Of a DNA stretch of 64,000 nucleotides, positions 3,001 to 63,519 are shown piece by piece. The notes beneath the pieces are model-generated. The model ran no database searches. It was not told where the DNA came from and saw nothing but the letters and a program-made list of their open reading frames with translations. Source of the stretch: an uncultured Verrucomicrobiota bacterium. Its GTDB lineage: Bacteria; Verrucomicrobiota; Kiritimatiellia; RFP12; UBA1067. Both the position numbers and the translations under genes were made by a program. Numbering within the stretch: position 1 is the stretch's first letter; every line of letters starts with the position of its first letter. The DNA lies in NCBI GenBank assembly GCA_946533675.1, contig CAMNBZ010000008.1, forward strand, positions 5,360-69,359. The letters run 5' to 3'.

Positions 3001-6000
3001 GCGACGGGCGGCGCGGGCGGCGCGGGCATCGGCGGCGGGCGGAGCGGCGGCGCCGCGCTGAGAGGGGCGTGCGAAATCTCCGGCGGCATCGTGACGGCGA
3101 CGGGCGGCGACGGCGCGGCGGGCATCGGCGGCGGCGCGGGCGGCGCGGCTGGCTATTACGTGCAGCAGGGCGGAACGGTTGTTGCGCGCGGCGGCAGCGG
3201 CGGCAAGGATATCGGCGCCGGGCAGGGCGGGACGTCGGCCGGCATGACGACGGTAATCGGCGGCTCGCTCAACGCCGCGAGCGCGAACGTCGCGCCTGTT
3301 GCGAAGAACGCCTCCGCCGAGCGCGTCTACTGCGTGACGGTTCCGATCGGGCGCGCGAACTTCGACATCGGCGCGGCAATGACCGATTTCGCCGGCTATT
3401 CGCTTTCGGGGGCGGTGACGGACGACGAGGGGAAAATCTACGTCTGGCTGCCGGACGGGAAATACTACATCAACATCGCGAACAGGCCGTTCCGCGCGAT
3501 TGTCGATGGCGCGGACACCGAGGCGGAGGTCTGGTCTGTCGGCGTCGAAGTGGATGGCGTGGATGTCGCGCTGCAGTCCGGCGAGGGGTGGACGTATTCG
3601 GTCGATACGGGGCTTCTTTCCGTCTTCGCCGACGGCTGCGTGATTTCCGGCACGAACACGGCGGGTCAGGCGTATATCGAGATAACCAACGACGTTTCGT
3701 TCGTCATCTCCAACCTTGTCCTGTCGACGAGCGGCAGCGGCGCACCCATTGCCGTCTGCTCGAACGTGGCGGCTGTTGTCGCCCTGGCAGGGGCCAACCG
3801 GCTCCAAAGCGAGGTTCTGTCCCGGCCTGGCATCCACGTGCCCTACAGTTCGTCGCTTGTTCTCACGAATCTCGATTCGGTGGTTTCCGTTTCCGATCCC
3901 GACGGCGCGATCCTCTCGCCGAGTCTTATAGCAAAGGGCGGCGGCAGTTCGGCGGGCATTGGCGGAGGAGGATACGAGAGCCACGGTACGATCACGATCG
4001 CGGGCGGCGTAATTTCGGCGATTGGCGGCTTCCGCGCCCCGGGCATCGGGAGCGGGTATTTCGCCGACAGCGGCGCCAACTCCGCCGATGCCGCCACGCA
4101 GCAAATGGGCGAGATAAGAATAAGCGGCGGACATGTGACGGCCGAAGGCGATTCCTATGCCGCCGGCATCGGCGGCGGTAACGGACATTCGGGCGGTACG
4201 ATCGGCATTTCCGGCGGCACGGTGACGGCCATCGGAGGGGAATGCGCCGCCGGCATCGGCGGCGGGTATGGCGCGCGCGGCTACGATATCCGCATATCCG
4301 GGGGCGTCGTGGCGGCTCGTGGCGGCGAAGGCGGTGCGGGCGTCGGCGGCGGGCAGGCCAGCTACAACGACTTTGCATCGAACACCGAGCCGTGCCGCGT
4401 CGCGATATCGGGCGGCCGCGTTTCGGCGAACGGCGGCGAAGGCGCTTCGGGAATCGGATCCGGCCACAAGGATAAACAGTGCGCGATCGTGGGAATAACG
4501 GGCGGAACGGTCGTGGCTGAATGCGGCGGCGCCAAAGAGGGCTATCAACTTCCGGACGATATCGGCGTCGGGGCATGCGCCGATTCGGGCAAAGCCACGT
4601 ACCCGCTCACGATCAAAAACGCGTCCGTACACGCGACGCACAGAACGGCCTCGGCGGAATACGTCTCGCCCGCGCCGTCGAACGGCACGGCGCGCGTCTG
4701 GTGCGTGACGGTTGCCACACAATCCACGAACGAGCTTGTCATGATCGAAAATCTCGCGGGCTACGACAGGGCGAACGGGCTGTACACCGACGAGGAAGGC
4801 AAGCTGTACCTGTGGCTGCCGAACGGCACGTATATATTCTACGTGGGCAAGGAACCGTTTACGGCGACCGTCGACAACGCCGACACCACGGCGGAAGAAT
4901 GGCTGACGGGCGTCACGGCGGACGGCGTGGACGTCTCGCATGTCATGGCCAGGGGCCAGAAGTGGTATTACGACATCGGAGAGAAGAGGCTGTATGTCAT
5001 AGACGACTGCGTCGTGTCCGGCACAAACACGGACGGTTACGTCAGCATCACAGCCGGGTCTCTGTCGCAAGATGAAGGCGCGGCGCTTTCCGTGACCGTT
5101 TCCAACCTTTATATCAAGTCTTCCTCCGCCTCGCCGCTCGCCGTCACGAACGGCGCGGTGACGGTGCGGCTCGCGGGCGCGAATATGTTCGATGCCACGG
5201 ATACCGGCGACTACGCGGCATTGAACGTGGACGCATCCGCCACGCTCGCGATCACGAACCTCGAGGAGAACGCGGCGCTCATGGCCAGGGGCGGCACCGA
5301 CGGCGCGGGCATCGGCGGCAACCGGGGCGAAGGCACGGGGACGATCCGCATCGAAGGCGGCATTGTCTATGCGTACGGCATAGAAGACGGCGCGGGAATC
5401 GGGAGCGGCTACAAGGGTACGTGCGGCGACATCTACATCACCGGCGGCCGGGTGACGGCGATTGGCGGCACGAGCAGCGGGCTCTTCGGTTCGGCGTACT
5501 GCGGGGCGGGCATCGGCGGCGGCGATTCGTCGGAATCGGCGGGGCGCCGAATCGAGATTTCCGGCGGAACCGTCACGGCCCTGAGCAATGAGATCGGCTC
5601 GAAGCACGCCGCCGTCATCGGCGACGGTTATTCCGCGAAGACCAAGAATGGCTACACGGTCGTGATGGCCGGCGGCAGCGTTCTGCCGGACGGCAGATCC
5701 GACGCGTCGACGTGCTTCACCGAGTCCTCCGCCAACGTGAAGACCTATCCCGCCGCCGCATCCGGCGAAAGAGCGTACGAGGTTGTGCTCGCAGGTTTCA
5801 CCGCAGGTGCAAAGGCCGATATCGAAATCGACGGCTACGGCACGAACGACATCTACGCCGATTACGGCGGCAGGATACATCTCTGGCTCGCGCCCGGCGT
5901 CTACAATGCCGCGATCGGCTCCGTCCGGTATCTCCTGAAAGCGACGGAAAGCGGCGGAACGCTCGAAGAGCTTCTCCCGACGGGCGTCCTGGTCGACGGC

Positions 6001-8025
6001 GTCGATGTCTACGAAACCGCCGGCGCGGGTTGGACGTACGATCCGGCCAAAGGCGTGCTTTCGATCGCGGGCGACGCGACGCTTTCCGGCACGAACACGG
6101 CGGGCGCGGTGCGCTGCCGCGTCGAAAGCGACGCGAACATCGTCTTCTCGAATCTCTGCCTCAAGGCGACCGGGAACCGCCAGACGCCGTTCGCCATCGC
6201 CTCGAACGCGACGGTGTCCGTTGCGTTCACCGGCACGAACACGCTTGCCGCCGGCAAGTACTGCGCGGCGCTCGAAGTGCCGTACGAGTCGGGCGTTTCC
6301 ATCGGCGGCGACGGCTGGCTCTACGCGGCCGGCGGCGGCGGGGACGGCTGGAGCTATCCCGGAATCGGCGCGAGCGCAGGGATGTATCAAGCTGTTTCCA
6401 ATGTCGTCATCAGGAGCGGCAACATCGTCGCGACGACGCCGGAGGATTTCATTGATTCGATTTCCGGCGCGCTCGTCGCGGGAGGCAATGTCAACATGCG
6501 CGATTCCAATTCCGCGGTAAATAGCGACGGCGCGCTCCTCGACCGCGTGAAAGTCGCGAATCTTCCGGCAGGCAAGGCGGTGGAGATAACGGGGCTGCCG
6601 GCCTACTATGACGTATCCAACATTTGCGCGGACGATTCCGGGAACATCTATCTGTGGCTCCCCAGGGGCAACTACGCGTTCACCGTCGACGGGACGAAGT
6701 ACTTCGCGGGCGTTGCGGGCTCGGCGACGACCGCGCTCGTGCAGGATGTGGACGTCGCGATCAACGGCGAGAACGTCTGCACGCTTTCCGGCGGCGGCTG
6801 GTACTACGACGTGGCCGACAGGACGCTCTACGTCACCAACCAGGGAACCTACACCGTGACCGGCACGAACGACGAAGGCAAGGTGGCGATCTACCTGAGG
6901 GCGGAGGACGGTCCCGTCGAACTCGTCCTGAAGGATCTGCATCTTTCCGGCTACACGCGCGAAGATCTGTATTCGCCCATCGTCCTGAGCGACATCTGGG
7001 ACCAGCAGCCCGTCACGCTGACGCTCGCGTCCTCCAATTCGCTCGTGTCGTGCGCGGACAGCACCCACCACAAGTACGCCGGCATATATGTGCCCTACGG
7101 GCGCACGCTGACGATCGCGGGCGACGGGTATCTCGCCGTCACGGGCAACAGCGGCGCGGCGATCGGCGGTCGTGAAGAATATCTGAGCAATACGAGAAGA
7201 TGCGGCAACATCAACATAACGGGCGGCCGGATCGTGGCGAGAGGATCGTCCTCCGCGATCGGCAGCTGCGACGGCCAGTCGTGCGGCGACATCGTGATTT
7301 CCGGCGGAACCGTCGAGGCGGAAACGACCAGCGGGCAGGCGATCGGAACGGGCGGCGCGAATGTGCAGCAGACCGTCGTCATCACAGGCGGTTCCGTCAA
7401 GGCGACGGACGCCGGCGCGGCGACGGTGGCGGTGAACGCCTCTGGCGCGGCGCTCTCGTGTGTCGAAGTTTCGGGGCTCTCGCCCGGCGCGGCCGTCGCG
7501 TTCAACGGGCTGCCGCCGGGCTACGGAACGGACTGCATTTACGCGGACGCGGACGGCAAGGCGTATCTCTGGCTTCCGGCGGACTGGACGACGCCGGTGA
7601 CGCCGAAGCTCATGTCCGCCGCTCCGCGCAGGCTTCTCGCCGCGACTTCCGGCACGACGCACACGTTCGTCGCGAACGGCTACAGATATACGGTCGAAAT
7701 TCCTTCGGACGGCGGCGAGGTTTTCTCTGAAAAGGGCGAGGCGCTTCAGCTGGAAAGCGTGACGATCGACGGCTTCGCGGTCGAGGACGGCTGGCTGAAG
7801 ATCCACCTGACGGCCCGCCCGGCGACGTGGCTCTACGGTTTCGCCGACACGCTGGCCGTCCGCGCAGCCGCGACGCTGCCCATCCCGGCGGACGCGACGC
7901 TCGACCTCTCCCGCGCCGAATGGCGTCTCGAGAACGGGGACGCGGCCCTGTTCGCGGTGCCGCTCGCGGCGGAGCAGCAGACGATGTTTTTCAGCGTCGG
8001 GACGGTAGACGGCGCGGGTGAATAA
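1..8025 (+). CDS. Giant secreted repeat protein, 5' partial (>2,670 aa). Glycine-rich beta-helix-like coils plus repeated YLWLPxGxY modules; adhesin/surface-protein-like, function unknown
   Basis: Frame 1 is open from nt 1, with no stop before the listed start at 22. Dozens of coils of the form I.I.GG.V.A.GG.G(A)AGIGGG. At least 7 copies of D..G.(I/L)Y(L/V)WLP.G.Y.F.V, each paired with GV.VDGVDV..GEGW.Y....L.V...VSGTNT. Confidence 0.8.
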   Translation, partial: YKGYADVVITGGTVFPTPGSKASAIGAGYSAGSVTASEKIDVAAVYTTADKVSPSAKNSAGDAVFPVTFDFGVADCRITDLVINKVSHACNDVWTNEKGELVLWLTSTSGNQRTITIVGVDEDGNEIKKSWGVSIDGDGNYKFTRDIVTVDGEPVVGGLDADGSGWDYFADTSIMTFRSGNHTLGGSSTNGSIRIVVAGDDVALTVQKLTLKTPYDRLSPFVVSNKCTLTLVDESTFEGIYNPNASTVSKNGSEYTAGLEVPAGASLTIEGDGTLTAIGGWCGAGIGSRGTGSENAGSITINGGYVYAVGGDGKSGGGAGIGGGLGGGVESITVNGGYVDATGGKGCCGIGGGWGSNIKLTNGTFRVTGGTVLAAKGAGTVLSDFVTASGNTVDVTTGKSIVIDGACSVRPKNAVVANANPCPGPVNSNDVRLVFSVIDGLGPGDMVHLSDDIWTQYNGASLLADDGGALCLWGEATNVERNVEFESPNIPGGKMTFALSAASNTIFHVSDDYEAPESRKVNGVTCWRVSVVALPARKRLPVEGIDAVYSRGTTVSDATGMTYLYLPDGSYDFTVGGYAYHAEVNGGVATATFTVGILVDGVDIGACSGEGWSYSGTDEILSLGAAKEYVVSGTNAERQVSVCAATRGVKIRADRLELAPAGRGAFYAADGVPSFEYAGGTLGTGEIPSQMVVSGGTIDATIQNPVAVTSSGVLTNAYCVTIDGLPRFAKIDIANIEGLENYDTQGIYANEYGEVYLYLPDGDYWFSVSDGATTSEKIAIVDGAEAVALNYDPTGVSINGRDAARLRGDGWLNEDGLVRLLAATDYVLSGTNGGPAVTFQAQTSRTTLVFDNLVMTNAAMEVSPVSVGSGQKATFTVELRGTNILHGVSSDAWCGVEMLQMTELNFTGDGSLEATGQGPGIGMGRGEVADMSSVIIHSGTIVATGGSSAAGIGGGGGQDGIRTYVYGGSVTATGGNGAAGIGGGYNCYGAAVTITNGVVVATGGAGGAGIGGGRSGGAALRGACEISGGIVTATGGDGAAGIGGGAGGAAGYYVQQGGTVVARGGSGGKDIGAGQGGTSAGMTTVIGGSLNAASANVAPVAKNASAERVYCVTVPIGRANFDIGAAMTDFAGYSLSGAVTDDEGKIYVWLPDGKYYINIANRPFRAIVDGADTEAEVWSVGVEVDGVDVALQSGEGWTYSVDTGLLSVFADGCVISGTNTAGQAYIEITNDVSFVISNLVLSTSGSGAPIAVCSNVAAVVALAGANRLQSEVLSRPGIHVPYSSSLVLTNLDSVVSVSDPDGAILSPSLIAKGGGSSAGIGGGGYESHGTITIAGGVISAIGGFRAPGIGSGYFADSGANSADAATQQMGEIRISGGHVTAEGDSYAAGIGGGNGHSGGTIGISGGTVTAIGGECAAGIGGGYGARGYDIRISGGVVAARGGEGGAGVGGGQASYNDFASNTEPCRVAISGGRVSANGGEGASGIGSGHKDKQCAIVGITGGTVVAECGGAKEGYQLPDDIGVGACADSGKATYPLTIKNASVHATHRTASAEYVSPAPSNGTARVWCVTVATQSTNELVMIENLAGYDRANGLYTDEEGKLYLWLPNGTYIFYVGKEPFTATVDNADTTAEEWLTGVTADGVDVSHVMARGQKWYYDIGEKRLYVIDDCVVSGTNTDGYVSITAGSLSQDEGAALSVTVSNLYIKSSSASPLAVTNGAVTVRLAGANMFDATDTGDYAALNVDASATLAITNLEENAALMARGGTDGAGIGGNRGEGTGTIRIEGGIVYAYGIEDGAGIGSGYKGTCGDIYITGGRVTAIGGTSSGLFGSAYCGAGIGGGDSSESAGRRIEISGGTVTALSNEIGSKHAAVIGDGYSAKTKNGYTVVMAGGSVLPDGRSDASTCFTESSANVKTYPAAASGERAYEVVLAGFTAGAKADIEIDGYGTNDIYADYGGRIHLWLAPGVYNAAIGSVRYLLKATESGGTLEELLPTGVLVDGVDVYETAGAGWTYDPAKGVLSIAGDATLSGTNTAGAVRCRVESDANIVFSNLCLKATGNRQTPFAIASNATVSVAFTGTNTLAAGKYCAALEVPYESGVSIGGDGWLYAAGGGGDGWSYPGIGASAGMYQAVSNVVIRSGNIVATTPEDFIDSISGALVAGGNVNMRDSNSAVNSDGALLDRVKVANLPAGKAVEITGLPAYYDVSNICADDSGNIYLWLPRGNYAFTVDGTKYFAGVAGSATTALVQDVDVAINGENVCTLSGGGWYYDVADRTLYVTNQGTYTVTGTNDEGKVAIYLRAEDGPVELVLKDLHLSGYTREDLYSPIVLSDIWDQQPVTLTLASSNSLVSCADSTHHKYAGIYVPYGRTLTIAGDGYLAVTGNSGAAIGGREEYLSNTRRCGNINITGGRIVARGSSSAIGSCDGQSCGDIVISGGTVEAETTSGQAIGTGGANVQQTVVITGGSVKATDAGAATVAVNASGAALSCVEVSGLSPGAAVAFNGLPPGYGTDCIYADADGKAYLWLPADWTTPVTPKLMSAAPRRLLAATSGTTHTFVANGYRYTVEIPSDGGEVFSEKGEALQLESVTIDGFAVEDGWLKIHLTARPATWLYGFADTLAVRAAATLPIPADATLDLSRAEWRLENGDAALFAVPLAAEQQTMFFSVGTVDGAGE

Positions 8026-19802: not shown

Positions 19803-22800
19803 ATGAAGATGAGACGGATGTGCAGAGGAATCATGGCGGGTGTGGCGCTGCTGGCGCTCACGGTCGCCGCCGGCGACGGCCCCGCCGAGAGAGTCAAGGT
19901 CGCCTGTATCGGCGACTCGATCACCTACGGCTACGGCCTCGCCGACCGCGACCACGAGTCGTATCCCGCACAGCTCCAGAAACTGCTCGACGCGCAGGAG
20001 CCGGGCAGATACGAGGTGCGCAACTTCGGCAACTCCGGACGCGGCATCTACCTCGATTCGATGCGCGGCGACGAGAAGCGCGGCTACCGCTGGATGGCCG
20101 AGCACAAGGCGGCGCTTGACTGGAAGCCCGACATCGTCATCTGCAACCTCGGCATCAACGACTGCGGCGAATACATCAAGGAATACACCGGCGGACGGAA
20201 GCGCGGACAGTTCGTCGACGACTATGCCGCGCTGCTGGGCGACTACCGCGACGCGAACCCGCAGGCGAAGTTCTTCATGTGGACGAAGCTTTCGCCGCTC
20301 GCCGAGGGCCAGAAGTTCTATCGCAGTCCCGAGCCGTTTCTGATGCAGACCGATCTGGAGGTGGTCGCGTCCCGTCTGGGCGCGACGGGTATCGACATGC
20401 AGGAACCCCTGCGCGAGAAGATGGACGAGATCCTCGCCCGCGACAAGATCCACCCGAACGCCGAGGGCGCGCGCCTCATCGCCGAGGCGACGTTCAAGGC
20501 GCTGACGGGCGGTGCGGGCGGACAGCCGATTCCGCGGCTCGTCACGAAGATGCGCGTCGAGACCTGGCTTTGCGCCGGGCAGTCGAACATGCAGAAGGGC
20601 TGGGGCGAGTTCAACGCGACGCCCGCCGAGAAGGAACGGGTGCGGAAGGAACTTGCGCGGCTGGACCGCGTGGACGTCCGCTTCTGGGACTTCAACACGG
20701 GTGAATGGACAAAGCTGACCCGCGAGAATGCCCTGGCAAAGAGCGCGTTCGGCGTCTCGTTCGCGATCCGCCGTGCCGAGGCGATCCACGGTCAGGTCCG
20801 CCTGCTCTACGTCGCGGCCGGTGGCGCGCCGACGGAATCGTTCCTTTCGGAACAGACGATGTGCGCCGTCGGGAAGGACGGAAAGCCGCTCTATCCGCAT
20901 CTCGCGGCGATTGCGACGAACCGCCACCGCCTCGACCAGAACAAGGACTTCCCGTGCGCCTGGGTCGCGCGTGAATATCCGCGCCGCCGCACGAACACGG
21001 AGGAGGCGTACTGGTGGCCCGTCTCGAAGATGTACGACAACGGCATCGCACGCATCAGGGAAAGCGGCCTTTCGCTTGACGGTATTCTCTGGTATCAGGG
21101 CGAGTCGAACGCGACGACGTGCGTTGCGCCCGATACGCCGACGGACCGCGACTACCAGCGCGAAACCCTCCGTGCGCTCATCTCGGAACTCTCCACTCTC
21201 AACTCTCCACTCTCAACTCTCCACTCTCAACTCTCAACTCTTCTCGTTGTGGGCTTGCCGAAGATGAACCGTCCGTGGGAGCAGTACCGCGCGGTGCAGC
21301 GCGAGGTGTGCGACGAGACGGGCGCGACATTCGTCGACACGTTCGCGGCGGGGCTCGGCGACGCGCACGACGTCCATCCGCGCGACAAGGCCGCATTTGC
21401 CGATCTCGCCGCCCGCGCGGCGGCGGCGGCGTTCCGCACGCGCGCCACGCGCGCCGCGACGACGCGCCCCCTCGGCGACGGCTGGACGTTCTCGCGCGAC
21501 GGCGCGGACTGGACGCCCGTCCGCGTGCCGCACGACTGGGCGATCCAGGGGCCGTTCGACAAGCAGCACGACATCCAGGTCGTCGCCATCAAGGAGGACG
21601 GCGAGAAGAAGGCGAACGAAAAGACGGGCCGCACGGGCGCGCTGCCGTGGATCGGGCGCGGCATCTACCGCCGCACGGTCGAGCTGCCGGCGGACGTCAC
21701 GCGCGCCGCGCTCGTGTTCAGCGGCGCGATGAGCGAGCCGGAAATCTTCTGGGACGGCGAGAAGGCGGGCGAATGGAAGTGGGGCTACACGAGCTTCAAG
21801 GTCGATCTGCCGCGGCCGACGCCGGGCGCACATGAGCTGGAGGTGCGCCTGACGAACCGCCCGGAGTCGTCGCGCTGGTATCCGGGCGCGGGGCTCTACC
21901 GGCCGGTCTATCTCGTCCTCAACGCGGACGACGCGGAAGCGGCCGTCTTCGCGCGGCCGGAGAAGCGCGCGGCGCTCCCGAAGATCGAGGTGAGCGAGAA
22001 GGGCTTTTTCGTGAACGGCGAACGCGTCACGTTCAAGGGCGTGTGCCTCCACCACGACCTCGGCTCCATCGGCGCGGAGTGGAACGCGTCGGCGTTCCGG
22101 CGGCAGGTGCGGCTCCTGAAGGAGATCGGCGTCAACGCCATCCGCACGTCGCACAACCAGCCGAACCCGGAGCTGCTGGACATCTGCGACGAGGAGGGGA
22201 TCTACGTCATGGCTGAAAGTTTCGACGCGTGGCGGCGCGTGAAGGTGAAGAACGGCTACAACCTGTGGTACGACGCGTGGTGGAAGCGCGACCTCGCGCA
22301 GCTCGTCAAGGTCTGCCGCGACCATCCGTGCGTGGTGATGTATTCGCTCGGCAACGAGATCTGGGAGTCCGTCTGCCCCGAGGGGCCGGCCATGCTCCGC
22401 GAGATGCAGGACTACCTCCATGCGCTCGATCCGTCGCGCCCGTGCACGCTCGGCAACAACCGGCCGCTCTACGCCGGCAAGATCGGCACGCAGGCGGTGC
22501 AGGACATCGCGGGCGCGAACTACCACATCTACGAGTACGAGGCGACGCGCCCCTACGCGCGGCACGGCGTCATTCTCGGCACGGAGACGGCGAGCGCGAT
22601 TTCGACGCGCGGCTTCTACCGCTTCCCCGACGTGGTGCGCAAGTACCGCGACGCGCCCGACGGCGACGGGTGCGTGTCGAGCTACGATACGGACGAGATC
22701 GACTGGAGCAACCTCGCGGACGACGACTTCGCCGCGCAGGAGGACTGGGACTGGGCGCTCGGGCAGTTCGTCTGGACGGGCTTCGACTACCTCGGCGAGC

Positions 22801-23537
22801 CCTCGCCCTACAATCTCTACTGGCCGAGCCGGTCGAGCTACTTCGGCATCTACGATCTCGCGGGGCTGCCGAAGGACCGCGCGGCGCTCTACCGCAGCGT
22901 GTGGCGGCCGGACGTGCGCACGCTCCACATCCTGCCGCACTGGACGTGGCCGGGACGCGCGGGCGAGACGACGCCCGTCTACGTCTACACCGACGCGCCC
23001 GAGGCGGAGCTGTTCGTCAACGGCGTGTCGCAGGGCCGCCGCGCGAAGGACAGGGCGAGCCGCCTCGACCGCTACCGTCTGCGGTGGCGCGAGGTCAAGT
23101 ACGAACCGGGCGAACTGAAGGCCGTCGCGTTCTATCCCGACGGCACGACGCGCACGGCGGTCGTCCGGACGGCGGGCGCGCCGGCGGCGCTGCGGCTCGC
23201 CATCGACCGGCCGCGGATCGGCCTTGCGAACGCGGACGGCACGCGCGAGCTCGCGTATGTGACGGTCGAGGTCGTGGACGCGGCGGGGACGGTCTGCCCC
23301 GATGCGGCGCTGCCGCTGTCGTTCGCCGTCACCGGCGGTGCGGCGCGCTTCAAGGCCGCGTGCAACGGCGATCCGACGTCGCTGGAGGTCTTTACCGAGC
23401 CGCACATGACGACGTTCCACGGCGCGCTCGTCGTGACGCTGGCCGCCGAGAAGGAGGGCGCGGCGACGCTGACGGTGACGGCGGACGGTCTGCCGCCCGC
23501 GACGATCGGCCTTGCGGTCGCTCCGTCGGCGCGCTGA
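19803..23537 (+). CDS. Tri-domain enzyme: SGNH/GDSL esterase + sialate-O-acetylesterase-like (SASA) domain + GH2 glycosidase
   Basis: VACIGDSITYGYG, NLGINDCG and DKIHPNAEGA match SGNH blocks I, III and V. WLCAGQSNMQKGWG and ILWYQGESNA match SASA. The GH2 part carries NAIRTSHNQPNP and YSLGNEIWE. Confidence 0.88.
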   Translation: MKMRRMCRGIMAGVALLALTVAAGDGPAERVKVACIGDSITYGYGLADRDHESYPAQLQKLLDAQEPGRYEVRNFGNSGRGIYLDSMRGDEKRGYRWMAEHKAALDWKPDIVICNLGINDCGEYIKEYTGGRKRGQFVDDYAALLGDYRDANPQAKFFMWTKLSPLAEGQKFYRSPEPFLMQTDLEVVASRLGATGIDMQEPLREKMDEILARDKIHPNAEGARLIAEATFKALTGGAGGQPIPRLVTKMRVETWLCAGQSNMQKGWGEFNATPAEKERVRKELARLDRVDVRFWDFNTGEWTKLTRENALAKSAFGVSFAIRRAEAIHGQVRLLYVAAGGAPTESFLSEQTMCAVGKDGKPLYPHLAAIATNRHRLDQNKDFPCAWVAREYPRRRTNTEEAYWWPVSKMYDNGIARIRESGLSLDGILWYQGESNATTCVAPDTPTDRDYQRETLRALISELSTLNSPLSTLHSQLSTLLVVGLPKMNRPWEQYRAVQREVCDETGATFVDTFAAGLGDAHDVHPRDKAAFADLAARAAAAAFRTRATRAATTRPLGDGWTFSRDGADWTPVRVPHDWAIQGPFDKQHDIQVVAIKEDGEKKANEKTGRTGALPWIGRGIYRRTVELPADVTRAALVFSGAMSEPEIFWDGEKAGEWKWGYTSFKVDLPRPTPGAHELEVRLTNRPESSRWYPGAGLYRPVYLVLNADDAEAAVFARPEKRAALPKIEVSEKGFFVNGERVTFKGVCLHHDLGSIGAEWNASAFRRQVRLLKEIGVNAIRTSHNQPNPELLDICDEEGIYVMAESFDAWRRVKVKNGYNLWYDAWWKRDLAQLVKVCRDHPCVVMYSLGNEIWESVCPEGPAMLREMQDYLHALDPSRPCTLGNNRPLYAGKIGTQAVQDIAGANYHIYEYEATRPYARHGVILGTETASAISTRGFYRFPDVVRKYRDAPDGDGCVSSYDTDEIDWSNLADDDFAAQEDWDWALGQFVWTGFDYLGEPSPYNLYWPSRSSYFGIYDLAGLPKDRAALYRSVWRPDVRTLHILPHWTWPGRAGETTPVYVYTDAPEAELFVNGVSQGRRAKDRASRLDRYRLRWREVKYEPGELKAVAFYPDGTTRTAVVRTAGAPAALRLAIDRPRIGLANADGTRELAYVTVEVVDAAGTVCPDAALPLSFAVTGGAARFKAACNGDPTSLEVFTEPHMTTFHGALVVTLAAEKEGAATLTVTADGLPPATIGLAVAPSAR
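21187..21246 (+). repeat. In-frame low-GC tandem array: (CTCCACTCTCAACT)x3 plus CTCAACT units
   Basis: AACTCTCCACTCTCAACTCTCCACTCTCAACTCTCCACTCTCAACTCTCAACTCTTCTC, translated ELSTLNSPLSTLHSQLSTL. Same family as 60748-60858 and 62139-62194. Confidence 0.9.
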
Positions 23538-39150: not shown

Positions 39151-39189
39151 CCTAGGATTCGAGGCATCTAGGATTCTAGACTTCTAGAC
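39151..39189. repeat. CTAG-rich motif cluster (CCTAGGATTC, TCTAGGATTCTAGA, TTCTAGA)
   Basis: Four CTAG tetramers in 39 nt. It is the inverted orientation of the TCTAGAATCCTAG motif seen at 28685 and lies in the aspS/gspG divergent region. Confidence 0.7.
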
Positions 39190-56164: not shown

Positions 56165-56213
56165 GTTCTTGTCCGCGGGTAGAAGGGGTGCCGCTTGTCT
56201 CGGCGAGAGGTGC

Positions 56214-56330
56214 GTCAATCCGTGGCGAAAGGAGCATCCAATCCGTCGTGAAAGGAGCTCCAATTCAGCGAATGAAACGTCCATTCAAGACAAAGGGAAC
56301 GTCAATTCAAGGCGAAAGGAGGGTCAAGTC
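56214..56330 (+). repeat. Five tandem ~22-bp repeats (TCCAATNCNNNGNGAAAGGAGN) ending at the start codon
   Basis: Units at 56214-36, 56237-58, 56259-79, 56280-301 and 56302-23, plus a partial TCAAGTC. Unit lengths of 21-23 nt are not multiples of 3. Confidence 0.85.
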
Positions 56331-57299
56331 ATGAAAAAAGAGTCGAGAACATATCAACATTCGGCCTATTGGTATGCCGCGCAGTATGGCTGGTCGCGGA
56401 GTGACGCGCAAAGTTATTCCGGCACCTATCTGGATATCCATACCTATTATCCGCGGGGGACCGGCAGGAAGGGCGCGGACGGGCGGGAGGCAGGCTGGTG
56501 CTTCGACTCGACCTTCAACCCGATCGTCCTGGGCGTGTGCCTCGCAACGGATATCGGGCTGGCGCTGCGCGACACGGTGCGCAAAATCACCGATCCCGTC
56601 GAGCGGGACCGAATGAAGCGCGAACTGATGCGCGATCTGCGCAGTCTCCGCCGTCCCGTCTATTACGAGCGGGAACGCGCGCGACGCCGCCAACTCGCCC
56701 TTGAACGGCGCAAAGTGACCCGACGCGAAATGGACGCGCCCATGCCCACGGCGGACGAAATCCGCGCGGCATGGGATCGCCGCACGAACTCGCGCGCAGA
56801 TGCCATCCGCCTGGGCGGTCTCCTCGATACGCTCGCCTGCCACGTTGACAGCTGCCTCAAATTCGACGAATACGGGAATGTTGTCGGACGAAACGGCGGC
56901 ATTCGCGGCTGGCTGCGGCTGTGCCTGCCCGAACTCGCGCCGAAATACAAGACGCTCATGCGCTACAAGGCGCTGGCGACTCGCCTGCGGCAGCTGACGC
57001 AGACGCACGACCCCGTGCCGACGTCGCGCCTGCTGGAGGAGCCGCTGGACGAGAAGGTGGCGGCGCTGCTCGGTGCGCCGTCCAGGACGTTTTCGCAGCT
57101 ATTCGCCGATGTCGACTATCAACTGTCGCCCGAAACCGTTTTTCTCGATCCGCCAAGATGCACCGCGCGGCCGGGCCGGATGGCCGACCAGATGGTGAAA
57201 CGGGTGAAGAAGCGACGCGACAAGAAGCGTGAGAAAATCAGACAAGAATTTTCCGCATTGAATTCTCATAAACGAAGCTGGAGGTTGGTGGGGCGTTGA
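56331..57299 (+). CDS. Hypothetical protein (322 aa, Arg-rich, no recognisable domain)
   Basis: AAGGAGGG SD lies 7 nt before the ATG. The ORF continues upstream to 56106, but that part lies upstream of the -10 box and within the non-triplet repeats. Confidence 0.6.
   Translation: MKKESRTYQHSAYWYAAQYGWSRSDAQSYSGTYLDIHTYYPRGTGRKGADGREAGWCFDSTFNPIVLGVCLATDIGLALRDTVRKITDPVERDRMKRELMRDLRSLRRPVYYERERARRRQLALERRKVTRREMDAPMPTADEIRAAWDRRTNSRADAIRLGGLLDTLACHVDSCLKFDEYGNVVGRNGGIRGWLRLCLPELAPKYKTLMRYKALATRLRQLTQTHDPVPTSRLLEEPLDEKVAALLGAPSRTFSQLFADVDYQLSPETVFLDPPRCTARPGRMADQMVKRVKKRRDKKREKIRQEFSALNSHKRSWRLVGR
57244..57269. repeat. Direct repeat copy B: AAGAATTTTCCGCATTGAATTCTCAT
   Basis: Matches 56127-56151 and lies inside the 3' end of the 56331-57299 ORF. 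Confidence 0.8.
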
Positions 57300-57491
57300 G
57301 TTTTGGGGGCGAGAGCAGGGGATCGGCGATCGCTGAAGGGCCGAAGGTTGGTTAGAAGAGCCGAAGGTTGGTCAGGAAAGAAGATTTCTGATCGGAAGTC
57401 GATCTTGGCGGGGTGCGGGAGCTTGGTAGAAGGGGTGCGCAAACGGTCATGTTTTAGGTGCGCGAAAGGCTCCGTGTTGAGTTGGGTGAAA

Positions 57492-59742: not shown

Positions 59743-62700
59743 ATGAACATCCGTATCAAATGCGCCGCGGCGGCGCTGGGCGCAGCCGCTGTTTTCACGG
59801 TCGGCGCGCAGGAGATCGTCACGTGCGGCGGCGGCAGCTACGCATCCTACGCGCCGTGGCGGCTCGCGCGCTCGACGCGCCATTGGGGCGACCAGAGCCG
59901 CATCATGCAGACGCGTCCGCTCTACTTGACCGAGCGCCGCACGGGCGACCCGATCCCGACGAACGACTGGTGGACGGATGCGCTCGTCAGCCGCTGGACG
60001 GGCAACCTCTGGAGCTATCCCGCGAAAGTGCGCATCGACCCGGACGGCGTGCGCGTCGCCTTCCCCTCGTACTGGATCGATGACGGCACGGAAATGAAGG
60101 AGCGCTCGGCGCTCGTCGTCTCCGCCGTCGGCGACTTCAAGCCCGAGGCGACGGAAGTGGACGACTGGCACGACTGGGACGTGGAGATGGTGCTGCGCGA
60201 CGGCGACGCGAGCCTTCGGACGACGCTCGTGCACGGCTCGCCGTTCACCTGGATCGAATCGAAGGGCGTCGCGCTCAAGATTTCAATCGACAGTAAAGGC
60301 GAGGCGGAGCCACGCCGCCGCGCGAAGGGCGGGGGCGAGCTGATCGCGGTCGGCGACGAGCGGTACGGCGTGTGGCGCGGAAAGCGCGCGGACGGCGAGT
60401 GGATCGCCATCGGCCTTCTGCCCGACGAGGCGTCGTTCGAAAAGCTCGCGCCGTATGCGACGGCCGTCATCCGGTCGACCCGCGTCGACTGGAAGTACGA
60501 CGAAAAGAAGGCCGAGCTGACGACGACGTGGCGCGTGACGACGGAGGATCTGCGCGGCCAGACGGAAAACCCTGTCGCGCTTCAGGGATTCCAGCCGCAC
60601 CACCTGAAGCGGACGAAGGTTGGCTTCCAGACGCTCGACGGCCTCGTGTGGCAGACGCCGCGCGGACAGCAGCGCGTCGCCGCAGGAAACTCGCTTTCGA
60701 TCACGTACAGCTTTCCGGGAATGCTGCCGTACTGGGCCGCACCGGGGGAGTTGAGAGTTGAGAATGGAGAGTTGAGAGTTGAGAATGGAGAATCGAGAGT
60801 GGGGAAGAAAACGAGTGGGCGGAACTCTCAACTCTCAACTTTCAACTCTCAACTCTTCAAGGATCTGCTCGCGGACTACGCCGCGCGCGGCAGCTTCGGC
60901 GGCGACACGTACTGGGGCGGCAAGGGGCTTCTGCAGATGGCGTTCGCGATGATGGGCGCGCGCGAGATCGGTGACGGGAAGACGTTCCGCGACGCGCACG
61001 CGAAGCTGCGCGCGAAGTTCGAGGACTGGCTCACGTGGACGCCAGGCGAGGAACGGTTCTTCTTCTCCTACGTGCCGCGCTGGGGTGGACTCGTCGGCGA
61101 AGGGACGAGCTACGATTCCGATGCGTTCAACGACCATCACTTCCACTACGGCTACTTCACCTACGCGGGCGCGCTCCTCTGCCTCGTGGACGACGACTTC
61201 AAGGCGAAGTTCGGCCCGATGCTGACGCTCATCGCGCGCGACTACGCGAACTGGGACCGCGCGGAGACGCGCTTCCCGTTCTTCCGCACGTTCGACCCGT
61301 GGGCGGGCCACTCCTTCGCGGGCGGCGTCGGCGACGGCGGCGGCAACGGGCAGGAATCGACCTCGGAGGCGATGCAGGGCTGGGGCGGGCTTTACCTCCT
61401 GGGCTTGGCGCTCGGCGACGACGCGATGCGCGACGCGGCGATCTTCGGCTATGTGAGCGAGGCGCGCGGCGTGGCCGAATACTGGTTCGACCGCGACCGC
61501 GAGAACATCGACTACACGAAGTTCAAGCACCCGTACAACTCCAACCTCACCTGTCACGGCGTCGGCTGGTGGACGTACTTCTCGGGCGATCCCGTCTGGA
61601 TGCATTCGATCCAGTGGCTGCCGAACACGCCCGCGCTGGACTACCTGAGCGAGGACCTGAAATTCGCGAAGTGGGACTGGGAGCAGATGTGGGCGACCAA
61701 GGAGATCGGCGGCTGGTTCGAGAAGGGCCGCACGCGCGACGGACACGAGACGAATCCTGTCGGCAACGAATCGCTCGGCAACGTGCTGCTCTCGTACCTC
61801 CAGCGCCACGACCCGCAGCAGGCGGCCGACATCTTCGACCGGCTGCGCGCGAAGAAGATGGGCGCGGCCGTGAACGCCGACACGGGCCACATGACGTACT
61901 GGGCGACGCACAGCCACCTGACGTGGGGCGAGCTCGATTTCGGCGTCCGCGCCGATTACCCGTGCGCGCGCGCCTTCCTCAAGAACGGCCGGCGCACGCT
62001 GATGGTCTACAACGCGGCAGAAGTGCCGCGGACGGTCACGTTCTTCGATGCGGTCACGCACGCGGCGGTCGGCATGGTCGCCGCCGCGCCGCGCCGCCTG
62101 ACGGTTCAGCAGGCTGACGGCAAAATCCTGACAACACCCAACTCCACGCTCAACTCTCCATTTTCAACTCTCAATTCTCAACTCTCAACTCTCGTCCCCG
62201 CCGGCGTGATGCTGCCGGACCTCGCGCGCGGGCGGCCGACGAAAGTCTCGTCGCAGGAGAACGGCGCTCTGGCCGGCGCGAACATGACCGACGGCGACGA
62301 CACGACGCGCTGGGGCAGCGCGCATGACGAGACGGAGCTGACGGCGGCGGTCGACCTCGGCGAGGAAGTCGCGCTCTACGGCGTGGAACTGAAATGGGAG
62401 AATGCGTATGCGGCCAGGTTCCTCGTCCAGGCGTCGATGGACGGCGCGAGCTGGAAGACGCTCGGCGGCGAACGCAACGGGTTCGAGGGCGTCCAGAAGC
62501 TGCCGCTCAACGGCGAGAAGGCGCGATGGGTGCGCGTGAAGGGGCTGGAGAAGGCGACGCAGTACGGCATTTCGCTCTTCCGCTTCTCGGTCTACGGCCG
62601 GCCGCAGGGCGCGACGGGCGCGCTCGGCCTGAAGATCGACGCGGACCGTGCCGTTCTGAAGGAGGGCGTGCCGTGCGCGGTCACCGCGTCGCTGTGGATG

Positions 62701-63519
62701 GGCGGCGACCGGTTCAAGCCCGTGGAGCCGGAATGGTCGAGCGCGGATGGCGTTTTTGGCGCGCGCGGCTTCACGCCGACGACAAACGGCTTTGCGACGG
62801 TCACTGCGCAGAGCGGCCGGCTCGCCGTCACGAAGCGGCTGCCGGTCGAAGAGGCGCTGTGCGTCTCGACGTTCGCCTTCACGCCGACGAACGCGGTGGC
62901 GATCGCGGGCGAGGGCGTGAAGATCGGCCTTGCGGCGACCGACCAGTTCGGCGCGGCGATGAAGACGAAAGGGCTCAGGCTCGACATCTTCACGGCCGAC
63001 GGGAAGAAGGTGAAGACATCTGATTATCTGAAAAAGGGAGGCCTGTTCGTCGCCACGCAGCCGGGCGACTACACGCTCACGGCGGCGGTGGACGGTGTAA
63101 CGGCGACGTGCACGATCGCGGCGCGCGCGCGCGGGGATGTGAACCTCGCGCGGCTCGCGACCGTGACGGCGAGCGGCGAGGAGAACGGCGGGCTGAAGCC
63201 GGCGTTCGCGGCGGACGGTTCGATGAAGACGCGCTGGAGCAGCCGCCACCGCGACGGCGAATGGATCCAGTTCGACTTCGGACGGGAGCGCGAGGTGTCG
63301 AAGATCGCGATCGATTGGGAGAACGCGCGCGCGGAGGCGTATACGGTGGAGCTGTCGCGCGACGGCGCGACGTGGAGCACGGTCGCGACGGTGACGCACA
63401 ACGAGGGCGGGCGGCAGACGCACCACTGGAACAGGCAGAAGGCGCGCTGCCTGCGCCTCACGGGCGTGACGCGCAACACCGGCTACGGCATCTCGATCTT
63501 CGAGACCGACATCCGCTAG
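59743..63519 (+). CDS. GH81 endo-beta-1,3-glucanase with Ig-like and two F5/8 type C (CBM32-like) C-terminal domains
   Basis: PIPTNDWWTDAL, FNDHHFHYGYFTYAGALL, FDPWAGHSFAGG and GQESTSEAMQGW match GH81 signature blocks. Two discoidin-like modules end in GISLFRFSVYG and GISIFETDI. GGAGG SD; GTG 59740 is an alternative start. Confidence 0.85.
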   Translation: MNIRIKCAAAALGAAAVFTVGAQEIVTCGGGSYASYAPWRLARSTRHWGDQSRIMQTRPLYLTERRTGDPIPTNDWWTDALVSRWTGNLWSYPAKVRIDPDGVRVAFPSYWIDDGTEMKERSALVVSAVGDFKPEATEVDDWHDWDVEMVLRDGDASLRTTLVHGSPFTWIESKGVALKISIDSKGEAEPRRRAKGGGELIAVGDERYGVWRGKRADGEWIAIGLLPDEASFEKLAPYATAVIRSTRVDWKYDEKKAELTTTWRVTTEDLRGQTENPVALQGFQPHHLKRTKVGFQTLDGLVWQTPRGQQRVAAGNSLSITYSFPGMLPYWAAPGELRVENGELRVENGESRVGKKTSGRNSQLSTFNSQLFKDLLADYAARGSFGGDTYWGGKGLLQMAFAMMGAREIGDGKTFRDAHAKLRAKFEDWLTWTPGEERFFFSYVPRWGGLVGEGTSYDSDAFNDHHFHYGYFTYAGALLCLVDDDFKAKFGPMLTLIARDYANWDRAETRFPFFRTFDPWAGHSFAGGVGDGGGNGQESTSEAMQGWGGLYLLGLALGDDAMRDAAIFGYVSEARGVAEYWFDRDRENIDYTKFKHPYNSNLTCHGVGWWTYFSGDPVWMHSIQWLPNTPALDYLSEDLKFAKWDWEQMWATKEIGGWFEKGRTRDGHETNPVGNESLGNVLLSYLQRHDPQQAADIFDRLRAKKMGAAVNADTGHMTYWATHSHLTWGELDFGVRADYPCARAFLKNGRRTLMVYNAAEVPRTVTFFDAVTHAAVGMVAAAPRRLTVQQADGKILTTPNSTLNSPFSTLNSQLSTLVPAGVMLPDLARGRPTKVSSQENGALAGANMTDGDDTTRWGSAHDETELTAAVDLGEEVALYGVELKWENAYAARFLVQASMDGASWKTLGGERNGFEGVQKLPLNGEKARWVRVKGLEKATQYGISLFRFSVYGRPQGATGALGLKIDADRAVLKEGVPCAVTASLWMGGDRFKPVEPEWSSADGVFGARGFTPTTNGFATVTAQSGRLAVTKRLPVEEALCVSTFAFTPTNAVAIAGEGVKIGLAATDQFGAAMKTKGLRLDIFTADGKKVKTSDYLKKGGLFVATQPGDYTLTAAVDGVTATCTIAARARGDVNLARLATVTASGEENGGLKPAFAADGSMKTRWSSRHRDGEWIQFDFGREREVSKIAIDWENARAEAYTVELSRDGATWSTVATVTHNEGGRQTHHWNRQKARCLRLTGVTRNTGYGISIFETDIR
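60748..60858 (+). repeat. In-frame low-GC palindromic repeat element (inverted arrays of CTCAACT/CTCCATTCTCAACT units)
   Basis: The left arm (60748-60800) is the reverse-complement orientation of the right arm (60823-60858). Two 14-nt perfect complementary blocks. Translated GELRVENGELRVENGESRVGKKTSGRNSQLSTFNSQLF. Confidence 0.9.
62139..62194 (+). repeat. In-frame low-GC tandem array of the same CTCCAYNCTCAACT / CTCAACT family
   Basis: CAACTCCACGCTCAACTCTCCATTTTCAACTCTCAATTCTCAACTCTCAACTCTCG, translated NSTLNSPFSTLNSQLSTL. Confidence 0.88.

Follow-up and report, generated by a model that had tools for sequence, protein, structure and literature searches.

Heptanucleotide repeats are, on the account of Mrazek 2007 that is given in PMC4679880 and PMC4692102, the most abundant long simple-sequence repeats (SSRs) of prokaryotes. 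The families described include the STRR of cyanobacteria, the TAACTGA repeat of Beggiatoaceae, Cyanobacteria and Bacteroidetes, and the GGGAATC repeat of Xanthomonas (PMC4679880, PMC4692102, PMC2670836). Here, we discuss an element at positions 60748-60858 of a 64,000-nt stretch of DNA (hereafter, "the window") from an uncultured Verrucomicrobiota bacterium of the class Kiritimatiellia, in which two arrays of 7-nt units, inverted with respect to one another, sit in frame inside a gene for a secreted GH81 endo-beta-1,3-glucanase. We argue that the element is probably a slippage-driven, two-armed heptanucleotide SSR that is tolerated and filtered by selection as a disordered surface loop, and not a discrete mobile element. 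The likeness to described heptanucleotide SSRs lies in head-to-tail 7-nt units, many dispersed arrays, a unit number that varies between strains, occasional inverted hairpin pairs, and a single stop-free orientation that gives heptad peptides, and so occasional copies in open reading frames (ORFs) (PMC4679880, PMC4692102, PMC2670836). There are also differences: here, the arrays lie mostly within conserved protein domains and linkers rather than between genes, the whole two-armed hairpin appears to be translated, and we found no description of the YTCMAYT unit. An STRR is said to lie inside a functional RNA gene, to go by the title of a paper by Vioque from 1997.

Other systems share some of these properties. 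Rickettsia palindromic elements (RPEs), reportedly described by Ogata et al. in 2000, are ~100-nt stretches of palindromic DNA that lie in frame in conserved genes and encode a surface peptide, with the function of the host protein kept. The GH81 element is similarly palindromic, hairpin-forming and in frame in a conserved gene, with a predicted surface position. However, RPE families have a conserved full-length consensus (~100-150 nt) and are confined to Rickettsia, whereas here the 7-nt unit alone is common to the copies, the spacers are unrelated, the arm lengths drift, and the hosts belong to many phyla. The GH81 element also differs from miniature inverted-repeat transposable elements (MITEs), having neither a target-site duplication at its borders nor a conserved internal sequence. 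REP/BIME and REPIN sequences occur as many dispersed copies, each an inverted pair of fixed internal orientation that folds into a long hairpin; REPs are specific 20-40-nt sequences that are linked to RAYT transposases, extragenic and genome-specific. The repeats discussed here resemble them in the fixed order of two inverted units (70 vs 1 among the matches listed), but their arms are simple 7-nt arrays common to many phyla, and those of the window are intragenic.

An intragenic heptanucleotide repeat is also found in neuO of the Escherichia coli K1 prophage CUS-3, which has 3-53 AAGACTC repeats at its 5' end; the gene is out of frame in 42 of 64 genomes, and the activity of its product is reported to increase with repeat number (PMC13001214). 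As in GH81, the repeat is inside the gene, and the neuO heptads are translated only if the unit number is divisible by three (PMC13001214). By contrast, neuO has a single repeated heptamer at its 5' end and switches frequently, whereas the GH81 arrays are interrupted, internal and two-armed, with 11 of 11 alleles ON. An attC-like reading of the motif pair GTTRRRY/RYYYAAC was dropped, as the motif order is the reverse of that in integron attC sites. What appears to be new here is the YTCMAYT unit family itself, of which we found no description, its frequent in-frame siting in conserved proteins, a seemingly translated hairpin whose alleles differ in 21-nt steps, and a strict order of the arms.

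The GH81 element, its alleles and its orthologues

The element consists of a purine-rich left arm and a pyrimidine-rich right arm that flank a short spacer (Table 1). The arms make up a 33-nt inverted repeat that is 91% complementary and has a perfect 15-nt core. Tandem Repeats Finder (TRF) reports periods of 7 and 21 nt for the left arm and 7 nt for the right arm; the period-7 arrays that it finds in the window have 4.9-7.9 copies with 82-92% matches. GC content is 0.46 at 60750-60849 vs 0.667 across the window, and the frame is open throughout the element, with the translation GELRVENGELRVENGESRVGKKTSGRNSQLSTFNSQLF. As RNA, the element folds at -53.9 kcal/mol (z = -5.67), which none of 200 shuffles equalled; the corresponding value for DNA is -26.4 kcal/mol (z = -5.5). 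An earlier note, made from the letters of the window alone, had described the sequence, coordinates, palindrome, low GC content and preserved frame of 60748-60858. All of these are borne out, and the long hairpin that it had envisaged is very stable when folded as RNA.

The heptamer signal in the window far exceeds chance. A 14-mer of the arms, searched at up to two mismatches, has 20 matches in the window vs 0.19 expected, and lag-7 arrays are confined to three sites (four arrays: both arms at 60748-60858, 21187 and 62142). A scan of the window at lags 4, 5, 8, 10, 11 and 13 found no arrays. At the borders of the GH81 element, no direct repeat flanks 60748-60858 as a target-site duplication would. 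An Rfam search with the hairpin gave only generic miRNA-like hairpin matches, far under the gathering threshold, and 3' of the stem there is neither a T-run nor a terminator-like site. Arrays in the purine orientation contain a sigma-70-like pattern, TTGAGA-N17-GAGAAT/GAAAAT (9/12), at 60758-60786 (+) and 62188-62160 (-); the match arises because of the 21-nt higher-order repeat.

Conspecific alleles indicate how the element changes over time. The 90% cluster of the window protein includes alleles of 1258, 1265, 1279 and 1293 aa, all of them >=96.6% identical. Length changes among them affect the left arm alone and amount to +7, +21 or +35 aa, i.e., steps of 7 aa, 21 nt or three units. At the DNA level, which was checked for the window, L001 and L369, the left arm has 8, 11 or 23 units and the right arm always has five. 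The right arm is the same length in every conspecific allele, with two Pro substitutions there in P0130, and the array at 62142, in a linker of the same protein, likewise has constant length and point changes only. All 11 of 11 GH81 alleles are in frame, differing by multiples of 21 nt. The repeat-number polymorphism that the earlier note had suggested is thus found, in the left arm of GH81.

The left arm also avoids stop codons. Of the left-arm units placed such that a TGA would be in frame, 0 of 12 carry one, vs 23 of 30 units at the other places (Fisher p = 4.6e-6, for alleles that are not independent). Since the mismatches of the hairpin sit precisely at the units where TGA would be in frame, the left arm appears to be shaped by selection to stay open, at a cost to pairing. 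Together, stop avoidance and intact alleles would be indirect evidence for translation of the insert, and against the hairpin as the feature under selection.

The host ORF matches PF17652 (GH81, E = 2e-43) and PF00754 in Pfam, as well as the GH81 structures 6fop and 5t49 in the PDB, both by sequence and by fold (TM 0.78-0.86). The host protein is identical to database protein P0122, and members of its cluster are named 'Kiritimatiellae bacterium' at NCBI, in agreement with the PVC-type host proposed in the earlier note. In an alignment of 120 homologues, mostly from Kiritimatiellae metagenome-assembled genomes (MAGs), the element lies in a hypervariable loop between the conserved motifs LPYWAAP and Y-x-x-x-LF-x-x-L-x-DYA; the only carriers are the window protein and relatives with 96-97% identity to it. 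In the alignment with the solved structure 6fop, the flanks of the insert are matched and the insert itself is skipped. An AlphaFold2 (AF2) model of the protein has a mean pLDDT of 85.6 and a pTM of 0.89, with pLDDT falling to 43-52 over residues 341-360. The model predicts a small beta-hairpin for ELRVE-NG-ELRVE, and a helix at 369-382 that starts inside the right-arm peptide FNSQLF and is the first helix of the helical domain. The insert peptide, of 38 residues, is predicted to be a low-confidence surface loop, disordered or a beta-hairpin, between the N-terminal beta-sandwich and the helical domain; a surface loop, for which the earlier note had proposed a check by modelling, is thus what the structure model predicts. 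At the far end of the insert, the last eight codons of the right arm (TCA ACT TTC AAC TCT CAA CTC TTC) align with TCC ACA TAT AAC TCA TCG CTC TTC (STYNSSLF) of the orthologue L124, meaning that the right arm runs into ancestral sequence, without a clean insertion border.

Seven loops from non-conspecific orthologues give a longer view of the site. Lag-7 periodicity is significant in four of the seven (L002, L124, L126 and L367; p <=0.003), borderline in L123, and absent in L125 and L368; the units in L002 are GAATGGA/AAATGGA. Heptamer periodicity with differing units in distant orthologues argues that the loop is a long-standing repeat hot spot, and not the site of a single insertion or of a conserved structure. 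From the sequences compared, this periodicity points to repeat turnover in situ rather than to one insertion. The claim of a lineage-specific in-frame insertion thus stands in part: the hairpin is present only in the window protein and its close relatives, but the loop is heptamer-periodic in several distant orthologues. A conserved hairpin was also considered, and was ruled out because the orthologue loops fold no better than shuffles: none of the seven except L368 beats them, and z ranges from -0.4 to +1.6 in five of the seven. The corresponding GH81 loop of L368 (~1450-1480; orthologue P0029) contains another palindrome, GC-rich and perfect over 11 bp, CCGCGAGATGA-CC-TCATCTCGCGG, which encodes SCREMTSSRG and is also found in P0068; the L368 loop folds with z = -3.0.

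Further arrays in the window and its lineage

Both of the one-armed arrays that the earlier note had listed are confirmed, and both keep the frame; they span 21187-21241 and 62142-62193 (Table 1). The host of the former is ORF 19803-23537, which encodes a GDSL-SASA-GH2 protein; there, within the SASA esterase domain, the array enlarges a loop that is short and variable in homologues.

Table 1. Positions of the GH81 host gene, the parts of its two-armed element, and the one-armed arrays of the window.
Feature	Position	Strand	Description
Host gene	59743..63519	+	Secreted GH81 endo-beta-1,3-glucanase with two C-terminal F5/8 type C (discoidin) domains; 1258 aa from ATG
Left, purine-rich arm	60748-60803	+	8 heptamers: GAGTTGA GAGTTGA GAATGGA GAGTTGA GAGTTGA GAATGGA GAATCGA GAGTGGG; higher-order unit of 21 nt (GAGTTGA GAGTTGA GAATGGA); encodes GELRVEN heptads
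Spacer (hairpin loop)	60804-60822	+	19 nt, GAAGAAAACGAGTGGGCGG; with flanking bases encodes GKKTSGR
Right, pyrimidine-rich arm	60823-60858	+	5 AACTCTC-type heptamers: AACTCTC AACTCTC AACTTTC AACTCTC AACTCTTC; peptide NSQLSTFNSQLF
One-armed array, GH81 gene	62142..62193	+	Encodes NSTLNSPFSTLNSQLSTL; linker between catalytic module and first discoidin domain
One-armed array, period 14 (AACTCTC CACTCTC)	21187..21241	+	Encodes ELSTLNSPLSTLHSQLSTL

In-frame copies also occur in other genes of the lineage, as the earlier note had supposed: in GH3 and SASA-GH2 genes, and probably in nspC. The GH3 beta-glucosidase gene next to GH81, just past the right end of the window, has in-frame heptamers in the purine orientation that encode ELRVESGELKVGGGELKV, directly after the conserved GHGLSYTTF motif (L001 6933-9563; L161 1993-4836). 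The JGI sample that yielded one of the GH81 alleles also yielded L193, a 12-kb contig with 67% GC that is probably from the same lineage as the GH81 host. This contig carries a polyamine-synthesis operon and seven arrays, among them 5741-5860, 6232-6266, 7370-7390 and 7839-7866. Its nspC-like decarboxylase gene contains a two-armed, in-frame element that encodes RVESEEWRVESGE...NSQFSTLNSQLF and folds at -57 kcal/mol (z = -5.4). One-armed arrays lie in the nspC-like gene and in a saccharopine-dehydrogenase-like gene, and two further arrays are intergenic. All arrays of the window and most of those of L193 are therefore intragenic, unlike those of the cross-phylum sample described below.

The window also has tandem repeats unrelated to the heptamers, at 56202-56340, 57335-57372, 39152-39189 and 2827-3136. 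Those whose period is 22-23, 20 or 16 nt coincide with low-GC stretches or adjoin them, and one with a period of 87 nt falls in a region that is very rich in GC and rich in Gly codons.

The repeat family across phyla and phages

The family to which these arrays belong has the consensus (YTCMAYT)n, which reads (RRTKGAG)n on the opposite strand; for it, we used a degenerate three-unit search pattern, CTCMAYTCTCMAYTCTCMAYT. This pattern has at least 120 loci in Genome Taxonomy Database (GTDB) genomes vs ~17 expected by chance over the whole collection; the matches listed are from Bacteroidales, Acidobacteriota, Planctomycetota, Verrucomicrobiota, Cyanobacteria, Oscillospiraceae, relatives of Fibrobacterota, Chloroflexota and Desulfobacterales. 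The same pattern has at least 120 matches in IMG/VR phage contigs, and the exact 21-mer of the left arm is present on at least 120 metagenome contigs, some of which are labelled human gut. This type of repeat is therefore not peculiar to PVC bacteria. Literature searches with the exact 14-mers returned no bacterial paper, and those with 7-mers returned noise only.

Among the genome matches listed, arrays of period 7 number 177 vs 0-5 for periods 5, 8, 10 and 11, and ~87% of arrays are outside long ORFs. Other heptamer units co-occur in loci that have YTCMAYT-family arrays. Clear in-frame arrays are nevertheless present in other phyla, in genes for SufS-like, Mfd, UvrA, GcvT, AcrB, DcuC, GlcNAc 2-epimerase and CarA proteins. 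The two-armed copies found elsewhere (70 copies) have unrelated spacers of 4-276 nt and only the heptamer unit in common. In the carA-like gene of L119, the 108 nt between the arms resembles what we take to be the native coding sequence of the CarA linker.

Single intergenic arrays are not placed evenly between genes. Read along the CTCAAYT strand, the gene 3' of the array is the nearer one in 80 cases vs 36 (p = 5e-5), with median distances to the gene of 27 nt on that side vs 118 nt (crude gene calls; those of loci L003-L366 with GC <=0.56). The end of that 3' gene which faces the array is more often its stop codon, again by crude gene calls, and the orientation of arrays relative to a downstream ATG-ORF has no clear bias. 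The crude gene caller, the second of two, placed too many arrays inside genes, since arrays in the pyrimidine-rich orientation have no stop in any frame; of its output, we use the nearest-gene distances alone. A protein-database search with (LSTLNSQ)6 was rejected as a census of in-frame copies: all its matches were short, spurious ORFs that cover intergenic arrays, many of them from Microcoleus and Planctomycetaceae; one Microcoleus MAG gives >12 such ORFs. Similar short ORFs over intergenic arrays, P0131, P0138 and P0161, have the JGI label 'chaperonin cofactor prefoldin', which is probably an artefact of the heptad pattern.

Origin and upkeep of the arrays

The explanation that we favour starts with slippage. 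The arrays would have arisen, and would turn over, by slipped-strand mispairing at a permissive, hypervariable loop of GH81, and the complementary arm would probably derive from template switching or fold-back copying. With a unit of 7 nt, only changes of three units (21 nt) would keep the frame; because GAGTTGA puts an in-frame TGA at every third unit, the survivors would be variants with GAATGGA or GAGTGGA at the in-frame positions. Stop avoidance and intact alleles indirectly suggest that the arrays are translated, and the product is predicted to be a disordered or beta-hairpin excursion at the protein surface. The hairpin in the nucleic acid would then be a by-product of the inverted arrangement, not itself selected, and the benefit, if any, would not go beyond what a flexible loop or linker offers.

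Several points weigh against this explanation: (i) we infer translation of the insert rather than observe it; (ii) unit counts come from metagenome assemblies, where tandem repeats can be collapsed or mis-sized, and clusters of intact proteins may under-sample frameshifted alleles; (iii) the GH81 element and the nspC element of L193 are alike, with left arms that end in GAGAGTGGGGAA, spacers of ~20-34 nt and right arms that end in CAACTCTCAACTCTT; (iv) the genomes that host the heptamer family range from 31% to 70% GC, and there are phages besides; (v) inverted pairs have the purine-rich arm, (RRTKGAG)n, first and (CTCMAYY)n second in 70 cases vs 1 in reverse, among the matches listed. As plain slippage predicts neither the spread over 31-70% GC and phages nor the arm order, a sequence-specific process may be involved.

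The arm order recurs in three independent samples, from GTDB, metagenomes and IMG/VR (loci L003-L366), at 27:0, 26:1 and 17:0, and the window element conforms to it. Stop codons are ruled out as its general cause, since TGGAG-type pairs, which are stop-free in both orientations, keep the same order. We found no report of such near-absolute polarity in the literature on heptanucleotide repeats. It may reflect fold-back or 3'-end-templated synthesis on the purine-rich strand, or a hairpin-specific enzyme. It is conceivable, although we consider it unlikely, that the (RRTKGAG)n...(CTCMAYY)n hairpins are the footprints of a sequence-specific process common to bacterial phyla and phages, the GH81 element being one translated footprint. 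Candidates for such a process may be templated repeat addition, fold-back synthesis at 3' ends in break repair, or hairpin-specific mobilisation.

A discrete, non-autonomous, palindromic mobile element of RPE, MITE or REPIN type, whose hairpin is recognised by an unknown enzyme and whose in-frame copies survive in surface loops, is in our judgement rather improbable. Such an element could account for the several genes of the lineage that have one- or two-armed in-frame copies, for the layout and arm ends common to the GH81 and nspC copies, for the presence of the repeat on phage contigs, and for the strict polarity (70 vs 1 among the matches listed) that a defined element would show. However, no core or spacer is common to the copies, spacer length varies between 4 and 276 nt, and the carA-like gene of L119 has what looks like native coding sequence between its arms; unrelated spacers and a native-looking inter-arm stretch argue against an RPE- or MITE-like unit. 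In addition, there is no visible target-site duplication at the GH81 borders, arm lengths vary freely (8-23 units vs 5), the orthologous loop is heptamer-periodic with other units in distant lineages, and the end of the right arm is homologous to ancestral codons. The RPE-like reading of the earlier note has partial support as a phenomenon, the outcome being palindromic DNA tolerated in frame at a protein surface, but is not supported as a mechanism or as membership of that family: what the copies share is heptamer arms, on either side of unrelated spacers and without a target-site duplication.

Phase variation, which the earlier note had raised as an alternative, is a less probable account still. 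On this account, the arrays would be contingency loci that turn secreted glycosidases OFF and ON whenever 7 or 14 nt are gained or lost, as AAGACTC does in neuO. The unit length is indeed not a multiple of 3, the arrays are inside ORFs, and the genes encode secreted, glycan-degrading enzymes. Nevertheless, 0 of 11 GH81 alleles are out of frame, and all differ by multiples of 21 nt, vs 42 of 64 OFF in neuO; the GH81 tracts are interrupted, with at most ~2 identical units side by side and higher-order periods of 21 and 14 nt. Moreover, no member of the GH81 cluster starts just after the element, although such fragments are kept in the cluster of the 21187 array. For the GH81 element, the idea is therefore not supported.

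Repeat-driven inactivation may occur at the 21187 array. This array has constant length in seven alleles, and about one in eight is out of frame, namely L371, on a scaffold (JGI 3300011002) that has other defects. L371 is a 98% identical GDSL-SASA-GH2 allele that has lost 28 nt (four units) matching window positions 21182-21209, and its ORF is split exactly there. The same allele has an 8-nt tandem duplication (GGCGAGCC) that shifts the frame at window position 23053, plus a run of N; it may represent a pseudogene, an OFF allele or a collapse in the assembly. Three database proteins also begin just past the 21187 array, but among them L370 begins at a contig end or a rearrangement. In L370 (1-165), homology to the window (97.8%) begins within the array, from window position ~21190 onward, and the 90 nt upstream are unrelated; they hold a purine-rich arm and an 8-nt spacer, and the called protein starts just past the array (MNRPW...). 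The array in L370 is a rearrangement or assembly breakpoint.

It is very unlikely that selection acts on the repeat peptides as such, i.e., that Ser/Thr/Asn/Gln-rich NSQLSTL heptads and the ELRVENG beta-hairpin are favoured as linkers and loops, with the DNA repeat serving only as their generator. The 62142 array does occupy precisely the linker that joins the catalytic and discoidin domains, ELRVE-NG-ELRVE is modelled by AF2 as a small beta-hairpin, and the activity of neuO is said to rise with repeat number (PMC13001214). However, the loop sequence is not conserved even in close orthologues, alleles with 3, 4, 6 and 8 heptads look like the result of drift, the model has low confidence across the insert, and the same peptides occur in unrelated housekeeping enzymes. 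Least probable of all is a hairpin that functions as an intragenic RNA or DNA structure (a ribosome pause between domains, an RNase site, an internal terminator, or an internal promoter at the TTGAGA-N17-GAGAAT match): its great stability as RNA and DNA, its location at a domain boundary, the sigma-70-like match within the left arm and the different palindrome in the same loop of L368 and P0068 are set against orthologous loops among which no structure is conserved (five of the seven have z between -0.4 and +1.6), very unequal arms in some alleles (23 vs 5 units), mismatches placed such that coding outranks pairing, the lack of a T-run or terminator-like site, and the lack of an above-threshold match in Rfam.

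Slippage filtered by selection would mean that SSRs whose unit is not a triplet can be domesticated within genes, since the heptad peptide encoded by a 7-nt unit is the same whichever frame is read. By allowing three-unit steps and stop-free variants, selection would yield loops and linkers of variable length in secreted glycosidases, and even in housekeeping enzymes. The arrays are also likely trouble spots for metagenome assembly and gene calling, coinciding with split ORFs, contig ends and spurious 'prefoldin' labels. The element itself is of moderate interest; the cross-phylum polarity of the arms is the part most worth following. A sequence-specific process, if there is one, would account for the 31-70% GC spread, for the arm order of 70 vs 1 and for arrays anchored near gene ends, as well as for arrays that seed new loops and linkers within conserved proteins. 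If a dedicated mechanism does underlie the polarity, it would bear on why heptanucleotide repeats are so over-represented in prokaryotes.

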